A DNA stretch of 64,000 nt, from positions 224,001 to 288,000 of the forward strand of contig JAXGPF010000005.1 of the NCBI GenBank assembly GCA_040767085.1, read 5' to 3'. The stretch is from Kiritimatiellia bacterium. Lineage in GTDB: Bacteria; Verrucomicrobiota; Kiritimatiellia; JAAZAB01. Positions 4,672 through 13,783 of this stretch are shown here, one piece after another. Position numbers and translations under genes: made by a program. The notes beneath the pieces are model-generated. The model worked only from the letters and a program-made list of their open reading frames with translations, searched no databases and was not told the origin of the DNA. How positions within the stretch are numbered: the stretch's first letter is position 1; each line of letters opens with the position of its first letter.

Positions 4672-5325
4672 TCATACCCCACGCCGGCGCGCCGGCCAGA
4701 GTATTTTATGCCATTGGAGATTAAGGCGCACCGGCAGGCCATCCCTTAAAATCCACCCCGCCAGTCGGGCTGGCGGCAGGCGGCCGGCCACGGGGCTGAA
4801 CAGCACCGCGGCGCACCGGCGTTCCAAACGGTGTTTGGCCACCAAGGCGCGCGCCCAATCGTAATCGGCGCGGCCGGCGAGCACGAATTTGACTTCATCG
4901 TGCGGGCGCAACCGTTTCAGATTTTCCCAGTCCATGGCGTGCGCCTGGCCGCTGGCCGGCGTTTTGATGTCCATGATCACCACGGCCTCCGCTGGAACCG
5001 CGCTGATATCGCAACTGCCGTTGGTCTCCAGCAGCACTCGGCCATGCCGGCCCAGCCGCCGCAACAACGCCGGCGCCGTCGGCTGCAGCAACGGCTCGCC
5101 GCCCGTCACCTCGGCCAGGCGCAGCCGGCTGGCGCGGAAAGACTGCGCCAGCGCCGCCACTGTAACACGCCGCCCGCGCGTCCGGCGGGCGTAAGCGGTA
5201 TCGCAATAGTTGCAATCCAGGTTGCAGCCGGCCAGGCGGATGAAGAAACAGGGCATTCCGGCCCGGGTGGATTCGCCCTGGATGGAAGCAAAAACCTCGC
5301 AGACATTGACAGCCGGCGTCATCAT
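4672..5325 (-). CDS. queE: 7-carboxy-7-deazaguanine synthase (radical SAM)
   Basis: EVFASIQGE, FIRLAGCNLDCNYCDT, TGGEPL, ETNGS, QWHK motifs; adjacent to queD. Confidence 0.93.
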   Translation of the reverse strand: MMTPAVNVCEVFASIQGESTRAGMPCFFIRLAGCNLDCNYCDTAYARRTRGRRVTVAALAQSFRASRLRLAEVTGGEPLLQPTAPALLRRLGRHGRVLLETNGSCDISAVPAEAVVIMDIKTPASGQAHAMDWENLKRLRPHDEVKFVLAGRADYDWARALVAKHRLERRCAAVLFSPVAGRLPPARLAGWILRDGLPVRLNLQWHKILWPARRRGV

Positions 5326-5693
5326 TCCTCCCAGTAAACCGCGGAGGTGCCGGGAGTCTCGCTGACGCGCACACGGTGGAGGCGGCAGAATGCGTCATTC
5401 AACTGGGCGGACAGACGCTGGTAAAGATGGCGGGCGATATGTTCCGCCGTCGGATTAACATCTTCAAACGCCGGCAAGTGATTCAGGTCCTGGTGGTCCA
5501 ACTCCGCCAGAATCTCCCGCAGGGCCCCGCGGATTTCCTTGAAATCAGCCAGCACGCCGACCTCGTCCGTCTGGCCCCCCCGCAGAAATACTTCGACTTC
5601 CCAGTTATGGCCGTGGGGATTGCAGCATTGCCCATCGTAACCCTCCAGGTGATGCGCGCCGCAAAAACTTTCTTTGACGCTGATTTCAAACAT
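5322..5693 (-). CDS. queD: 6-carboxy-5,6,7,8-tetrahydropterin synthase
   Basis: AHHL, C..PHGHNW, LDH, NPTAE, SETP motifs. Confidence 0.93.
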   Translation of the reverse strand: MFEISVKESFCGAHHLEGYDGQCCNPHGHNWEVEVFLRGGQTDEVGVLADFKEIRGALREILAELDHQDLNHLPAFEDVNPTAEHIARHLYQRLSAQLNDAFCRLHRVRVSETPGTSAVYWEE

Positions 5694-5768
5694 GGCTCGC
5701 TCCTGCGTTACCCCACGCGCGATAATCTTTCCGGATGCGGAAGGTTGAAGGTTTAAGATCCCGCAAGC

Positions 5769-5797
5769 ATATTAAGCCCAAACGCCAAACCTGTCAA
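5769..5797 (-). promoter_or_regulatory. Sigma70-like promoter for queD-queE
   Basis: Minus strand TTGACA (5797-5792), 17-nt spacer, TAATAT (5774-5769). Confidence 0.65.
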
Positions 5798-5824
5798 CGG
5801 CCAGCATCGCGGCGGACCCGGGGC

Positions 5825-6269
5825 GGGTGTAAGGCAAATTTGTTGATGATTTGTGTAAACTTTAATTTCACGGCGGATTTCAGTGTAATTTATGAGTCCG
5901 CTATAGATACAATCCTTCGAATTCCGATAATTTCGGCCAGGTACACCATCCTGGCCGAAATTGGGCCACCGTGTTGCGAATTTCGCTCCCCGAGCCTAGC
6001 GAGGGGTTCGAAAAGACAAGGCAAGTTTGGGGTGGATGCGTGGGCGCAGGGGGTGACGCTAACCCCACTGGAAAGCGGGGCAAGTCTCATGCTTGTCCCG
6101 CCGCAGGCGGGAATTGCGTCACCACTTGCAACCACGCCCGCAGGGTCCGCGCAGCGGACAGACACCCCGAAGAAAGCCTGTACGGCTCGCACTCGCCGCC
6201 GTCCTTTTCGAACGGAATTCGCTACGCATCCCTACCACCGCACTACCCCAACTAATTTGTCTTACACCC
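5825..6269 (+). ncRNA. Candidate large structured ncRNA or MITE bounded by a 21-bp inverted repeat
   Basis: GGGTGTAAGGCAAATTTGTTG (5825-5845) pairs with CAACTAATTTGTCTTACACCC (6249-6269); many nested helices with + strand G·U pairs; no credible CDS. Confidence 0.55.
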
Positions 6270-7575
6270 CCGGAGGCCGCCCGTAGACACAAGCGCCATG
6301 GGATTCTCTCACCTTCCAGGCCATGCGGCATGACCAGGCAGCTAGCACCAGGCAACCCGCCATGACCGTCAAATAGGCGGCGCGAGGATACACCACCACC
6401 GCCCCCGCCCTTTGTACGCCGCCAAACGCATCTAACACCAATCCCGCCAGGTGGCTGAGCAGGGCGATCGCCATGTAACACGCGCCGTTAACCAGGCCCA
6501 CCGACGCGCCGGCGGATTCCGGCGGATTGACCTCCTTGATTACGGCGCAAATGATGGGCGAGGCCGAACTGGCCAGCCCCAGCAGCAGCAGGCAAGCCGC
6601 CAGCCAGCGGGGCGAATAACCACGCCATAACGCCGCCGCCATCACTGCCAGCGCCAGCATGGTCAGCCCGGCGCAGCCGAAAATCACCGGCCGGCGGCGA
6701 TTCTGCAGCAAACGCGAGACAAAACCCGACAGCGAGGTGGCCAGCATGCAGACCAGCATCATCCAAAAAGAAACCGACGCCGCCCGGTCCGGAGTCAAAC
6801 CGCCGGCATCCGTCAGCATTTTTTTGCCGAGGACGGCCTGCCAGAGAAAATACACGCCGAAATTCACCATGCCGCATCCCATGACCGGCCAGGTGTCCGG
6901 ATTGCTTAAAATAATCTTCACCCGCTGCCATAACGTCGCCTGGCGGGCCGATGGCGCGGGGGCCCGGCGGCCGCGCAGCACGGCCAACGCCAACAACCAG
7001 GCCAGGCCGCTGAGCAGCCCGGCCCCGAACATGGCCGAACGCCAGCCCCAGCGGCCGGCCAGGCGTGCCAGCGGCAGCGTGCCGGCCAGGCCGCCGGCAT
7101 ATCCCACGAACAGGCAAAGGCACAGGATCATGGCAAAATGCCGGGCGGGAAACATGCCGTCCAGTTCCTTGACAAGACTGATGAAAATCAGGCTGGCGCC
7201 CAAGCCGGTCAAGGCGCGCACCGCATACAAACATGGCAGCGAATGCATCAACGGGAAGACCACCGAGGAAACCGCCAGCAGCGCCCCCCCGGTCAGCAGC
7301 ACGCGCGCACCGCCGTACCGATCGGCCAGCAATCCGGTGAAAAATTGCATCGCGCCGTAAATATACATGAAGACCGCGCCCAGTACCGTAATGGCCGTGG
7401 CGGTGGCCGCAAAATCCGTCTGCAATTCGTCGAACAGCGTGCCCGGCAGCGCCAGGCGCTGAAAATAGGAAAAAAAATACAGCAGGCACATGGCGGCCAG
7501 AGCTATTATTTTATGGCGCCGTAACATGCCGGCTTCCGCCGCTTTCAGAATTGATCCGTCAACATGTTTGTTCAT
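6262..7575 (-). CDS. MFS transporter
   Basis: About 12 hydrophobic segments and the MFS motif A 'GLLADRYGGARV'; start at 7575 or 7527. Confidence 0.88.
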   Translation of the reverse strand: MNKHVDGSILKAAEAGMLRRHKIIALAAMCLLYFFSYFQRLALPGTLFDELQTDFAATATAITVLGAVFMYIYGAMQFFTGLLADRYGGARVLLTGGALLAVSSVVFPLMHSLPCLYAVRALTGLGASLIFISLVKELDGMFPARHFAMILCLCLFVGYAGGLAGTLPLARLAGRWGWRSAMFGAGLLSGLAWLLALAVLRGRRAPAPSARQATLWQRVKIILSNPDTWPVMGCGMVNFGVYFLWQAVLGKKMLTDAGGLTPDRAASVSFWMMLVCMLATSLSGFVSRLLQNRRRPVIFGCAGLTMLALAVMAAALWRGYSPRWLAACLLLLGLASSASPIICAVIKEVNPPESAGASVGLVNGACYMAIALLSHLAGLVLDAFGGVQRAGAVVVYPRAAYLTVMAGCLVLAAWSCRMAWKVRESHGACVYGRPPGV

Positions 7576-8665
7576 CGCGGTAACAGCAGATTCCCCCGCC
7601 CTGCGGGCGGCGGATACGGAAAGCATTAGCCCCGGCGGCGGTAACGTAATCGGCGGAAGCCGGCACCTTGCCGCGCCCCCGTGGCAAATCCAGCACATAT
7701 TGCGGCGCCAGGTATCCCGGGAGGCTGCCCCAGAGTTCCCGCCACAGGCGCCGGCCGCGCGCCAGCGGCGGCCGCCAATGCCGGGTGCCGGGGGCGCGGT
7801 CGGGATGGTGCAGGTAATAGGGCTTGACGCCCGCCTCCGCCAGCCGCCAGCCGAGTTCCCGGAGCACGGCCGGGTCGTCATTCACCCCGCGCAGCAACAC
7901 GCTTTGATTCAAAAGCGGAACGGCCTGACGCAGCCGCTGCAGGTAATTCACGGCGGTGGGTGTAAGTTCGCGCGGATGGTTGAAATGCGCCACCACCCAC
8001 AACGGCTGCAAGGCAGCCAGGCCGCGCGCGAGCGCCTGGGTGATGCGGAACGGATTGTATGCCGGCATGCGGGTATGCACGCGTAACAGCCGCACATGCC
8101 GGATGCGCCGCAGCCGGCGCAGCAGCGCCAGCAGCGGCGCGTCCGGCAGCATCAGCGGATCGCCGCCGGTGAGAATTACCTCCCGGATTTCCGGATGGGC
8201 GGCAATATACGCCAGCGCCCGCGCCTGGGCCGCGGCGGTCCAGGCGCCGGCCGCTCCGCCCACCCGCCGCCGCCGGAAACAATAGCGGCAGTAGCCGCCG
8301 CATTGCATGGACGGAAAAATCAGAACCCGTTCCGGATGGCGATGGGTCAACCCGGGCGCCGGCCGGTGTTTGCCGCCATCCGCGATGGGGTCCGCCGACT
8401 CGCCGGGGCTGATCCGCAACTCGCGCGGATCGGGCAATACCATCCGCAGTAGCGGATCGGCGGGATCATCCGGACGCAGGAGGGCCAGATAATAAGGCGT
8501 GATTTTCACCGGCTGCCGGCGGGCGGCGGCTTCCATCCGCGCCGCCGCGGCCGGCGGCAAATGCAGCCGCTGGGCCAGGGCGCCGACGGAACGCGCGGCA
8601 TGGGCATCCTGCCAGCGCCAGTCAGCGCGGCCGGGACCGTGATGAACAATTTTTGAGCGTTGCAT
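7559..8665 (-). CDS. KamA-family radical SAM protein (lysine 2,3-aminomutase-like)
   Basis: ITPYYL, GLTHRHP, CGGYCRYCFRR, TGGDPL, HFNHPRE, NQSVLLRGVND, PYYLH, GRGK motifs. Confidence 0.9.
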   Translation of the reverse strand: MQRSKIVHHGPGRADWRWQDAHAARSVGALAQRLHLPPAAAARMEAAARRQPVKITPYYLALLRPDDPADPLLRMVLPDPRELRISPGESADPIADGGKHRPAPGLTHRHPERVLIFPSMQCGGYCRYCFRRRRVGGAAGAWTAAAQARALAYIAAHPEIREVILTGGDPLMLPDAPLLALLRRLRRIRHVRLLRVHTRMPAYNPFRITQALARGLAALQPLWVVAHFNHPRELTPTAVNYLQRLRQAVPLLNQSVLLRGVNDDPAVLRELGWRLAEAGVKPYYLHHPDRAPGTRHWRPPLARGRRLWRELWGSLPGYLAPQYVLDLPRGRGKVPASADYVTAAGANAFRIRRPQGGGICCYRDEQTC

Positions 8666-8713: not shown

Positions 8714-8797
8714 TGCCTGGGGAGGGAGTCGAACCCTCACGACCGTTAAGGTCATCGGATTTTAAGTCCGATGCGTCTGCCATTTCGCCACCCAGGC
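8714..8797 (-). tRNA. tRNA-Leu (anticodon TAA), CCA not encoded
   Basis: GCCTGGGTGGCGAAATGGCAGACGCATCGGACTTAAAATCCGA...GGGTTCGACTCCCTCCCCAGGCA; long variable arm. Confidence 0.96.
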
Positions 8798-12116: not shown

Positions 12117-12527
12117 CTACGCGCCTTCCGGATTCGGCAAAGCTTTGCCCTGCCGGCGCAAGCCGCGCCGGATGGCCGCCAACGCGGCTTGCGGCGACAT
12201 GGCGCCGAAATGAATGGGGATGATAAATCCGTCTTCCAAACGCAAGTTGAGCGTTTTCAGAATCAGCCACCGGCGGGTAACATCCGCCGATGCTATGCGT
12301 TGATAGGGCACGACAAAGGATGTTTCCGTCGGCTGGAAGGCCTGGATGCCGCGGCTGAGGGCGGCGCCGGCGCCGGCCGCCAGGGCCAGGCCGCCCTGGA
12401 AGCGGACATACAGGTTGGTCACGCAAAGCCGGCCGGTAACTTTCGCGCCCAGCGGGGTCGGTTCGCCTAAATACACAAACCACGAACCCGCGGCGATTTC
12501 ACCCCGGTCCAGATTCGGCGCACGCAT
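12117..12527 (-). CDS. Hypothetical protein, possible PH/GRAM-like fold
   Basis: 'VTGRLCVTNLYVRF' is a GRAM-like pattern; directly downstream of gdhA. Confidence 0.55.
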   Translation of the reverse strand: MRAPNLDRGEIAAGSWFVYLGEPTPLGAKVTGRLCVTNLYVRFQGGLALAAGAGAALSRGIQAFQPTETSFVVPYQRIASADVTRRWLILKTLNLRLEDGFIIPIHFGAMSPQAALAAIRRGLRRQGKALPNPEGA

Positions 12528-12538
12528 GAGCCCATCCG

Positions 12539-13783
12539 TTATTGCACGCCGCGGTCCACCATGGCCTGGACGATTTTCTCCAGGGCCAGGCAATAGGCGG
12601 CCTGCCGCAGCGTAATTTTGCGGCTGGCGGCAAATTCATGCACCCGGGCATAGACGGAACGCATGCGGGTGAAGAGCCGCTGGTTGACATCGGCCTCTTC
12701 CCAGTAGAAGCCTTCGCGGTTCTGCACCCACTCGAAGTAGGATACAATCACGCCGCCGGCATTGGCCAGGATGTCGGGCACCACGGTGATGCCTTTGCGG
12801 GCGAGGATTTCGTCGGCTTCGGGGGTCGTCGGTCCGTTGGCGCCCTCGGTGATCAGCTTGGCGCGGATATCCCCGGCGTTATCCGCGGTAATGGACATTT
12901 CCTTGGCGCAGGGCAGCAGGACATCGCAGTCGCAGGTGATCAGCTCGTGCATCTCGATCACCTTGCCGCCGGCGTAGCCCTTAATGCCGCCCGTGCGGTC
13001 GCGATGCTTGATCATTTCCGAGACATTCAAGCCCTCCGGATTGTATAGGGCGCCGGTGATATCGCTGATCCCCACCACCTTGATGCCGCGCTCAAACACG
13101 TCCAGGGCGGCATGGGAGCCGACATTGCCGAATCCCTGCACCGCCACGCGGTAATTCTTCAGTCCCATTTCGCGCACGGCTTCCAACATGGCGCATACCA
13201 CGCCGCGCCCGGTGGCTTCCTTGCGGCCGAGGGATCCGCCCAGCGCGATGGGTTTGCCGGTGACCACGCCGCGGGCCACATCGCGGTACTTGCGGTATTC
13301 ATCGTAAATCCAGGCCATTTCCCGCGCGCCGGTGCCCATATCCGGCGCCGGGATATCGATATTCGGGCCGATATCGTTCACCAGGCGCGAGGTGTACTTG
13401 CGCACCAGCCGCTCCAGTTCCGTGAGGGTCAGCGTCTTGGGGTCCACGGCGATGCCGCCCTTGGCGCCGCCGTAGGGGATGCCCGCCAGCGAGGTTTTCA
13501 AGCTCATCCACAAGGCGAGGGCTTTGACCTCGTCCAGGTCCACATCCGGATGAAAACGGATGCCGCCTTTGTAGCAGCCCAGGACATCGCTGTGTTGGAT
13601 GCGGTAGCAGTTGAACACGCGCATGCCGCCCTGGTCCAATTGCACGGTGGCCCGGAACATGATGACCTTGTCCGGAATGCGCAGGCGCTCCAGCAATTCC
13701 ATGCCGTGGAAGCGTTTTTCAAAATCAAGAAATGCGGCGGTGCGCTCCACCAGGCTCATTGCATTGTCCAACACGGATGCCAT
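12539..13783 (-). CDS. gdhA: Glu/Leu/Phe/Val dehydrogenase (glutamate dehydrogenase)
   Basis: KGGIRFHP, GGAKGG, DIPAPDMGT, VVTGKP..LGGSLGR.EATG, QGFGNVG, EGANGP, ANAGGV.VSYFEWVQN. Confidence 0.95.
   Translation of the reverse strand: MASVLDNAMSLVERTAAFLDFEKRFHGMELLERLRIPDKVIMFRATVQLDQGGMRVFNCYRIQHSDVLGCYKGGIRFHPDVDLDEVKALALWMSLKTSLAGIPYGGAKGGIAVDPKTLTLTELERLVRKYTSRLVNDIGPNIDIPAPDMGTGAREMAWIYDEYRKYRDVARGVVTGKPIALGGSLGRKEATGRGVVCAMLEAVREMGLKNYRVAVQGFGNVGSHAALDVFERGIKVVGISDITGALYNPEGLNVSEMIKHRDRTGGIKGYAGGKVIEMHELITCDCDVLLPCAKEMSITADNAGDIRAKLITEGANGPTTPEADEILARKGITVVPDILANAGGVIVSYFEWVQNREGFYWEEADVNQRLFTRMRSVYARVHEFAASRKITLRQAAYCLALEKIVQAMVDRGVQ

Follow-up and report, generated by a model that had tools for sequence, protein, structure and literature searches.

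Between queD and an MFS transporter gene, the genome of an uncultured Kiritimatiellia bacterium carries a 445-nt non-coding element whose two ends can pair with each other. Is it the gene for one large structured RNA, or is it a piece of mobile DNA? The element occupies positions 5825-6269 of the window, by which we mean the whole 64,000-nt stretch of DNA that was analyzed (contig JAXGPF010000005.1 of assembly GCA_040767085.1, positions 224,001 to 288,000 of the forward strand; C24:224001-288000 in our numbering of the source genome, G000, which has 4.08 Mb on 28 contigs). The original prediction, made from the letters of the window, was a single ~445-nt RNA with paired ends. Half of it failed and half stood: the terminal 21-25 nt are terminal inverted repeats (TIRs), present in ~11 copies with target duplications and with the ends of ISKra4-family insertion sequences (ISs), whereas the inner ~260 nt (5971-6229) have a multi-junction fold that is selected on one strand, matches nothing in Rfam, covaries across genera and is TIR-less in 85 of 104 cases. 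We consider it probable that the element is a miniature inverted-repeat transposable element (MITE) with ISKra4-family ends that carries a captured, lineage-specific structured module, a candidate RNA read from the + strand.

A BLAST search of the element against its own genome returned 33 matches on 14 contigs. Ten of these span the query from end to end with 76-80% identity, another is a copy interrupted by a nested insertion, and the remainder are fragments. When the 10 full copies were aligned with their flanks, they proved to be 372-445 bp long, with ~25-nt TIRs at both ends, and to be bounded by 7-9-bp direct repeats of flanking DNA (a perfect 9 bp at the copy on contig C8). The window copy stands between two copies of an octamer, CCCGGGGC at 5817-5824 and CCGGAGGC at 6270-6277. 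The empty site is found in a congener, G004, in which the queD-MFS spacer measures 121 nt versus 584 nt here and holds the octamer once (GCGCGGGGC); G004 carries no copy of the element anywhere, and G002 and G003 also lack it at the orthologous queD-MFS site. The own genome contains 41 TIR-like sites with up to 5 mismatches, and its TIR pairs lie 118-640 bp apart and include 139- and 237-bp derivatives; no pair 1-3 kb apart was found there, nor any open reading frame (ORF) conserved among the MITE copies. We concluded that the 445-nt element is a single inserted MITE, a non-autonomous DNA transposon. This had been named as an alternative from the start, together with a check of copy number and empty sites, and everything expected of it has now been found: dispersed copies (~11 full-length plus fragments), target duplications, the empty site in G004, and a cognate transposase with matching ends. 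The parts of the window copy are as follows.

5817-5824, no strand: left target-site duplication copy CCCGGGGC, single at the orthologous site of G004
5825-5849, +: TIR-L, pairs with 6249-6269; conserved at both ends in the 10 full copies
5850-5925, +: left arm, confined to the MITE form; found in every own-genus MITE copy, not in TIR-less copies of other genera
5872-5901, +: small hairpin within the left arm
5904-5931, +: candidate internal promoter TAGATA-16-GATAAT, weak (consensus match only, 9/12)
5929-5962 (5929-5941/5950-5962), +: P0, a perfect 13-bp hairpin directly 5' of the core
5971-6229, +: structured core, whole
5971-5986/6213-6229, +: P1, core helix
5988-6006, +: P2 hairpin, core helix
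6007-6015/6204-6212, +: P3, core helix
6016-6025, +: conserved junction of the core
6026-6034/6163-6171, +: P4, core helix
6035-6062/6112-6144, +: P5-P7, core helices
6063-6111, +: apical insertion of 49 nt with two extra hairpins, only in the window copy and not in the other 9 full copies
6145-6159, +: genus-specific extra hairpin GTCCGC/GCGGAC, in MITE cores and, at the equivalent place, in own-genome TIR-less cores; not in the minimal cores of other genera
6173-6193, +: 21-nt insertion hairpin, common to the C5 and C4 copies only in the alignment of copies (core length 200 nt in both)
6230-6247, +: short right arm, the least conserved part of the copies (77%)
6248-6269, +: TIR-R, carries the MFS stop codon
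6270-6277, no strand: right target-site duplication copy CCGGAGGC

The window copy is the longest, and both of its insertions (6063-6111 and 6173-6193) fall in loops and leave the helices intact. Contigs from a landfill metagenome (DNA run X4; depth 21, 2 contigs) link 6062 to 6113 via seven other letters; this joining form is the short apex form, from other copies or strains without the apical insertion of the window copy. The inner left TIR (5831-5855) and the junction-P4 region (6018-6042) are a 72% identical direct repeat, and the right end could pair with either, be this an alternative pairing or mere chance. The split copy (C4:12245-12905, locus L011) is interrupted after ~60 nt by a nested insertion of ~259 bp (12305-12563).

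The ends point to the parent family. A 1765-bp IS in G236 (L193 977-2741), consisting of a small ORF and an ISKra4 transposase (243.6 bits versus a cut-off of 205), terminates in the MITE's TIR with 1 mismatch, and the same TIR lies 3' of transposase C-termini in G024 (L197, 1 mismatch) and G206 (L198, 0 mismatches). Over 15 nt and beyond, the MITE's TIR matches the right end of the ISKra4-family IS in these three genomes with 0-1 mismatch. Even the ISKra4 copies of G038, a genome of another family, have 11 of 12 outer nucleotides in common with the MITE ends. Among the 33 genomes of the window's own family (f1), the NCBIfam ISKra4 transposase model matches 9, with 3 above the cut-off; the own genome has only remnants below it (52.7 and 35.2 bits, cut-off 205) at C24:199010-199461, and the model found nothing in G001-G003. 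The interior of the parent IS is unrelated to that of the MITE and includes no core. As the element has no transposase ORF, it is a derivative that uses ISKra4 ends and not a member IS.

Two other candidates for the parent were rejected. An IS1380 remnant beside a TIR in G038 was judged to be a coincidence, the ends of IS1380 being different from the MITE's TIRs, and the IS256-like transposase at the end of contig C5 has no matching TIR nearby. The latter gene is an intact 427-aa, Mutator-type frame at the very end of its contig (G000 C5:191648-192931; L057 1078-2361, − strand). At G038 C1:992448-992475, two ISKra4-type terminal repeats meet head to head without intervening sequence and form a 28-nt palindrome, which could be a minimal element or the footprint of an excision or circle junction.

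The passages of Guerillot et al. (2014; PMC3942029) on ISKra4-group members describe insertion upstream of sigma-A promoters, which may lie on either side of the element, and for TnGBS and its relatives they give an insertion distance of 15-17 bp from the −35 box. In the own genome, 5 of the 26 ends of 13 elements face an outward promoter-like site whose −35 box is 23-27 nt away, that is, 14-18 nt beyond the 9-bp duplication; among 20,000 random 80-nt windows, 0.62% had a promoter-like site at 14-30 nt. The left repeat faces the promoter at four of these five ends. One of the five belongs to the window copy, where the −35 box of queD begins at a distance of 27 nt from the end, 18 nt past the duplicated target; this box is conserved in G002, G003, and G004. 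The divergent queD promoter of the original prediction was recovered by the consensus scan on the − strand (TTGACA-17-TAATAT, 5797..5769), whereas the + strand promoter proposed with it (TTGAAG-17-CATATT, 5745-5773) failed the scan and lies outside the element, in unique flanking DNA beyond the duplicated target. Beside free (TIR-less) copies, no promoter at a fixed distance was found. The assignment as a MITE, the parent family, and the promoter-seeking habit all stand on their own tests.

What, then, is the interior? Mean pairwise identity among the 10 full MITE copies of the own genome is highest in P3-junction-P4 (98.9%), the genus-specific hairpin (98.3%), the 3' strands of P3-P1 (96.6%), and P0 (95.5%), and it falls to 86-88% in the two TIRs, 77-87% in the arms (left arm 87%, right arm 77%), and 79-84% in the apex stems, where the differences are compensated changes that define three stem variants. 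The core of the MITE copies is thus more strongly conserved than their ends. A DDE transposase requires the ends of its element, not the interior, and the pattern thus speaks for some other constraint on the interior.

Outside the genus, relatives match only the middle of the query and never its first ~100 or last ~40 nt. The core is a module of ~170 nt and seven helices, made up of the closing stem P1, the side hairpin P2, P3, the conserved junction, and P4-P7. The unit found in other genera comprises, in most copies, a hairpin at the P0 position and a short linker, then a core of ~150-160 nt and, in many copies, a short tail hairpin; the P0 hairpin varies in sequence, some copies have none, and the flanks around the copies of one genome are unrelated. 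We rejected the idea that a conserved ATG opens a protein reading frame across the core, as P2 and core lengths vary out of frame (indels not multiples of 3).

We searched for cores with a degenerate IUPAC pattern for the 5' half together with BLAST, and the resulting counts are lower bounds from which distant relatives may be missing. In 401 genomes of the class, the pattern occurred in the own genome and in 17 of the 32 other family f1 genomes and in none of the 368 genomes of other families; the reversed-pattern control gave 0. There were up to 20 pattern sites per genome, with 17 in the own genome, and BLAST with one free unit gave up to 42 matches in a single genome. Run against one genome for each of 185,579 species, the pattern hit 102 stretches; among the 80 of these that were listed, nearly all came from metagenome-assembled genomes (MAGs) labeled Kiritimatiellia, Kiritimatiellaeota, “Verrucomicrobiota,” or “Lentisphaerae,” and the three outliers checked, a Verrucomicrobiae MAG and two rhizobia, are chance matches without the 3' half. 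The same pattern had 0 matches in 2.9 million viral contigs. Both ISKra4-type ends were present within 300 nt in 12 of the 104 distinct cores, one end in 7, and neither in 85. All of the TIR-bearing cores belong to the window's genus, bar one copy in G017, and the own genome has 16 cores with at least one TIR and 6 without. The free form has been seen in at least six genera; the TIR form is essentially limited to one. The module recurs in many copies within a single uncultured family of the Kiritimatiellia.

A small hairpin with a GC stem of 6-7 bp, a 5' TTGG, and a 3' CCTTG recurs in the own genome in two related forms at no fewer than a dozen places, for example at C4:103189, C9:51577, C22:213712, C24:27122, and C24:232687 and also at C2:162660, C3:122807, C22:475892, C22:552674, C22:558051, and C24:30063. 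The nested insertion in L011 holds one of the TTGTGGCCGCAGGCCGCCTTG type, and many free copies have the same hairpin as their 3' tail. It may represent a terminator of a U-less type or a REP-like repeat in its own right.

We compared the fold of the window copy with 100 dinucleotide shuffles per strand. The + strand folds at −204.5 kcal/mol versus −146.0 ± 6.2 for the shuffles (z −9.48, 0/100 as good) and the − strand at −195.5 kcal/mol (z −5.94), so that the fold is far above chance and stronger on +. The pairings claimed in the original prediction are all present in the sequence. A repeat search recovered the end-to-end pairing 5825-5845/6249-6269 (21 nt, 90% complementary), the perfect 13-bp hairpin 5929-5941/5950-5962, and, among the nested helices, 5973-5988/6210-6225 at 81%, 6006-6015/6204-6213 without a mismatch, and 6038-6066/6109-6137 at 76%; the minimum-free-energy fold includes 6026-6034/6163-6171, 6075-6085/6091-6101, and the GTCCGC/GCGGAC hairpin. 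A scan of the whole window at the Rfam gathering score returned no match for the element, and its only match was a tRNA at 8714-8797. Within the element region, a search at E ≤ 10 yielded only five matches far below threshold (11-19 bits versus cut-offs of 35-70; the best, 19 versus 35), and Rfam 15 at E ≤ 0.1 gave 0 matches, HEARO included, for ten homologous loci. The Rfam check proposed with the prediction has thus matched no family for the window, the region, or the ten loci.

Covariation among homologues, likewise proposed as a check, supports the fold. RNAalifold of 19 cores from six genera predicted 51 pairs, 29 of them with double compensatory changes. A larger alignment used 54 of the 104 collected cores, namely, the 146-160-nt length class, from which one own-genus deletion derivative was dropped; its consensus has 48 pairs in seven helices, 35 of which show double changes and several of which occur as four to six pair types. 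Standard pairs fill 95.6% of the paired cells, versus 82.3 ± 0.4% in 500 column shuffles (0 of which reach the observed value) and 29-44% when the 3' partners are slid by 1-3 columns, and the covariation score is 0.453, versus 0.219 for the column shuffles and 0.06-0.09 for slid partners. P2 is out of register in the aligner; in the matched pattern strings, it can be seen to form a hairpin with a stem that varies freely in sequence from copy to copy. Some unpaired bases within the core are invariant. In the paired columns of 53 sequences (row L092, which was aberrant, was left out), there are 128 G·U and 37 A·C cells, an excess of G·U that fits selection on the strand written as +. The G·U bias that had been noticed on the + strand of the window copy therefore holds across the wider family and agrees with the fold energies (z −9.5 for + and −5.9 for −). 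We concluded that the fold is real and strand specific and that the core is an uncatalogued structured element. It is the core that is new here, whereas the MITE belongs to a known kind.

The neighborhoods of the free copies differ from those of the MITE copies. At 29 free-copy loci in other genera, 20 had a Pfam-supported neighbor, and the element was sense to it at 16, antisense at 3, and mixed at 1 (two-sided sign test, ~0.004). The usual layout is gene, element, gene in one direction, as in gyrB-gyrA, GH130-solute-binding protein, MFS-epimerase, and SDR-dehydrogenase; no transposase, nuclease, or reverse transcriptase neighbors any of the 29 loci, and the neighbors have no common function. 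The gyrB-gyrA spacer is filled in 2 of the 10 genomes of its genus, and gyrB and gyrA abut in the own genome. Thus, free copies are gained or lost as well.

From these observations we arrive at the following mechanism. An ISKra4 transposase acting in trans would cut and paste the MITE, giving the target duplication of ~9 bp, and insertion would be placed a fixed distance upstream of sigma-70-type promoters, here that of queD; the own genome now retains only a transposase remnant. The module would have been captured by the MITE within this genus. We infer the capture, and its confinement to the genus, from the extra hairpin common to the MITE and free cores of the own genome and from the presence of the free form in at least six genera and of the TIR form in essentially one. 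The module is selected for its one-strand fold, which is best explained by action as RNA from the + strand of the element. Such an RNA would be co-transcribed with the neighbors of free copies or, in the MITE, read from the weak internal promoter; that the module is transcribed and works as RNA is thus our presumption from the fold. As to a role, we lean toward a cis-acting module of mRNA processing or stability that would act on the messages in which it lies, or else a protein-binding small RNA. A bolder version, possible and distinctly less likely than the mechanism as such, makes the module a large structured RNA of a new class (perhaps a scaffold that binds protein, or a catalytic RNA, working in cis) that was captured whole in one genus by a promoter-targeting MITE. 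The MITE would then be in effect a prokaryotic “Pack-MULE,” by which a functional RNA gene is carried to new promoters and whose cargo is selected above its ends.

Several points weigh against this interpretation. With as many as 42 BLAST matches in a single genome, and with the gyrB-gyrA spacer filled in only 2 of 10 genomes, the module behaves like a selfish repeat rather than a fixed RNA gene, and no route by which TIR-less copies are mobilized was found. The direction of capture (host RNA into MITE, or a MITE interior that spread and lost its ends) is read from the distribution rather than from a rooted tree. Much of the covariation separates two subtypes and so represents fewer independent events than the cell counts. 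G·T pairs are tolerated in single-stranded DNA (ssDNA) too, and the strand asymmetry alone cannot separate RNA from ssDNA. The MITE copies show no sense bias (same strand, 2; opposite, 7; mixed, 1), as would be expected if promoter-targeted insertion sets their orientation. The internal promoter (5904-5931) is a weak consensus match only. Finally, 20 sequencing runs contain the locus, two of which are RNA runs with small shares, and the assembled contigs of these two cover parts of the flanking genes (5039-5280, 6847-7247, 6970-7146, and 7617-7861) and none of the element, a result that tells neither for nor against a transcript.

Some of these points would be accounted for if the whole family were selfish, its fold serving as an ssDNA structure that moves TIR-less copies in the style of REP/REPIN-RAYT Y1 enzymes or IS200/IS605, and the ISKra4 ends a second vehicle acquired later. 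Single-strand transposition would also produce a strand-specific fold and an orientation bias, and it would suit both the copy number (up to 42 matches per genome) and the gyrB-gyrA spacer filled in 2 of 10 genomes. Genes with a Y1_Tnp domain are present in 28 of the 33 family genomes, 7 of them in the own genome, and the four good-quality genomes without Y1 (G004, G009, G012, and G019) are also without the module; on the other hand, many Y1-positive genomes have no module (G005, G006, G014, G015, G018, and G024), and none of the six Y1 loci examined is flanked by the element, one 33-nt degenerate fragment being all that was seen. The Y1 (IS200-like) genes are multi-copy, with open frames of ~270-480 aa, much longer than IS200 TnpA; those of G000 are at C25:228356-228682, C26:85994-86320, C22:154636-154968, and four more sites. 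TnpB (PF07282) exceeded its cut-off in 0 of 5 genomes, among them the one with the most copies. The two best-flanked free copies (L025 and L153) have 10-bp direct repeats, with the word AAACCAT in both, but the gyrB-gyrA spacer is itself repetitive, and repeats of at least 10 nt at 5 of 75 free copies versus 2.3% in mismatched controls are not convincing. Known REP and IS200 ends, moreover, call for short hairpins and not for a fold of 170 nt and seven helices in which unpaired bases are invariant, and a DDE enzyme working on double-stranded TIRs gives no reason for an interior kept above them. We therefore regard a wholly selfish family as rather unlikely, though it is the explanation other than RNA action that we take most seriously.

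The sense orientation of the free copies would also suit a core that is a cis-regulatory leader, a riboswitch or similar sensor of the gene downstream, with the MITE copies as by-products. A same-strand gene lies downstream at 12 of the 16 free-copy loci with a Pfam-supported downstream gene, inspection of ORFs gave ~21 copies with a same-strand start 25-185 nt downstream, and a few copies have a ribosome-binding site and an ATG directly after the 3' tail hairpin; the module is information rich, with invariant unpaired bases, and second-messenger riboswitches can reach tens of copies per genome. However, the downstream genes have no theme (gyrA, a solute-binding protein, LpxI, an epimerase, an AraC-type regulator, DUF1015, a dehydrogenase, and glycosyltransferases), among 10 congeners only 2 have the gyrB-gyrA copy, neighbors lie on the opposite strand at 3 free loci and at 7 of 10 MITE copies, and no U-run terminator or conserved anti-Shine-Dalgarno platform was seen, all of which makes a leader improbable. 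Still less can be said for the original idea of a single ~445-nt RNA gene with paired 5' and 3' ends and its own promoter at 5745-5773. The z score of −9.5 for the end-to-end fold and the want of an Rfam match agree with it, but the paired ends are TIRs with target duplications, they surround variable interiors that include the 139- and 237-bp derivatives, and the same ends close a protein-coding IS; the proposed promoter is outside the duplicated target and fails the scan, and in the homologues of other genera ~100 nt at the start and ~40 nt at the end are missing. We give it very little credence. A retron-like RNA had also been suggested, with the remark that no reverse transcriptase gene is in the window; the ORF list bears out the remark, and five reverse transcriptase loci of 4 related genomes show no similarity to the element, which speaks against a retron. 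The only reverse transcriptase domain of the own genome (G000 C22:218662-219366, 55 bits, in a 600-aa open frame) likewise has no similarity to the element nearby. We thus retain the MITE with a captured module as the best account of the locus.

The insertion also touches its neighbors, which are listed here with their window positions.

4672-5325, −: radical-SAM queE-like gene
5322-5693, −: queD, PTPS family
5797-5769, −: queD promoter-like site TTGACA-17-TAATAT (consensus scan)
6262-7881 (6265-7881 without the stop), −: ORF of the MFS transporter (MFS_1, E 7.8e-29)
8714-8797, −: tRNA gene, 61.9 bits, the sole Rfam match at gathering score in the whole window

The stop codon of the MFS transporter gene (6262-6264, − strand) is supplied by TIR-R, and the last few coding bases of that gene are element derived (6262-6269). 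For annotation, this means that such elements supply stop codons to upstream genes, as with the MFS transporter, and adjoin promoters, as with queD. If the fold works as RNA, it would be a new lineage-specific RNA family from bacteria known only through digester, sludge, and landfill metagenomes, and a bacterial Mutator-like element could capture an RNA gene, amplify it, and deliver it beside promoters. If it serves mobility as ssDNA, there would be an unrecognized route for moving TIR-less copies. For the combination seen here, a bacterial Mutator-like MITE whose complex-fold cargo is under tighter constraint than its ends, we found no prior description in the literature searched, supplements being beyond reach. 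A search on structured and noncoding RNA in Kiritimatiellia found no description of the module (candidate-RNA lists in the supplements of surveys were beyond reach), and one on ISKra4 and MITEs found no ISKra4-derived MITE with structured cargo (with the same limit as to supplements).

How does the element compare with known systems? Its closest relatives are the ISKra4 ISs themselves (p-MULT 4, prokaryotic Mutator-like DDE elements; PMC3942029), whose right end its TIRs reproduce with 0-1 mismatch in the same bacterial family. It also has in common with them a target duplication of ~9 bp and the habit, described in PMC3942029, of inserting close to −35 boxes, on their upstream side and at a set distance, with either end facing the promoter. 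Unlike them, the element has no transposase, and its unrelated interior is a covarying module that also exists without the ends.

Bacterial structured repeats invite a second comparison. ERIC/IRU, BOX and RUP of the pneumococcus, Correia/NEMIS of Neisseria, and REP/BIME/REPIN are simple or modular palindromes, and RUP and Correia elements have TIRs that are used in trans by an IS transposase. By description, ERIC, BOX, RUP, Correia, and REP are like the present element in being dispersed, non-coding, intergenic, folded, and present in tens of copies, and the known set is often co-transcribed; unlike them, our module folds into seven helices, includes a three-way junction as well as invariant unpaired bases, and is TIR-less in at least six genera. 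The REPIN/RAYT arrangement differs further, in that the Y1 genes here are multi-copy, occur in many genomes without the module, and at only 1 of 6 loci stand near as much as a 33-nt fragment. Palindrome-associated transposable elements of the IS200/IS605 type are also unlike the present one: IS200/IS605 elements lack TIRs and target duplications, and this element has both. The HEARO/IscB and TnpB omega-RNA scaffolds share with the module a large covarying fold, many copies per genome, and a tie to mobile DNA; here, however, Rfam gave no match, none of 5 genomes had a TnpB above the cut-off (IscB/HNH was not searched for), and no nuclease gene stands beside the 29 free loci.

The nearest parallel to the proposed capture comes from plants, in which Pack-MULEs are non-autonomous Mutator-like elements that carry captured fragments of host genes. 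Both they and our element are non-autonomous members of the Mutator superfamily whose TIRs surround sequence also found as ordinary host sequence, and both favor the 5' regions of genes; the element differs in being prokaryotic and in carrying a complete non-coding structured module, the capture of which we infer. Pack-MULEs are brought up in the discussion of PMC3942029. MITEs are usually seen as the eroded interiors of transposons, which matter only through where they land. In contrast, the interior of this MITE is a complex fold that is kept above the ends, occurs without TIRs in related genera, and is preserved by compensatory changes.

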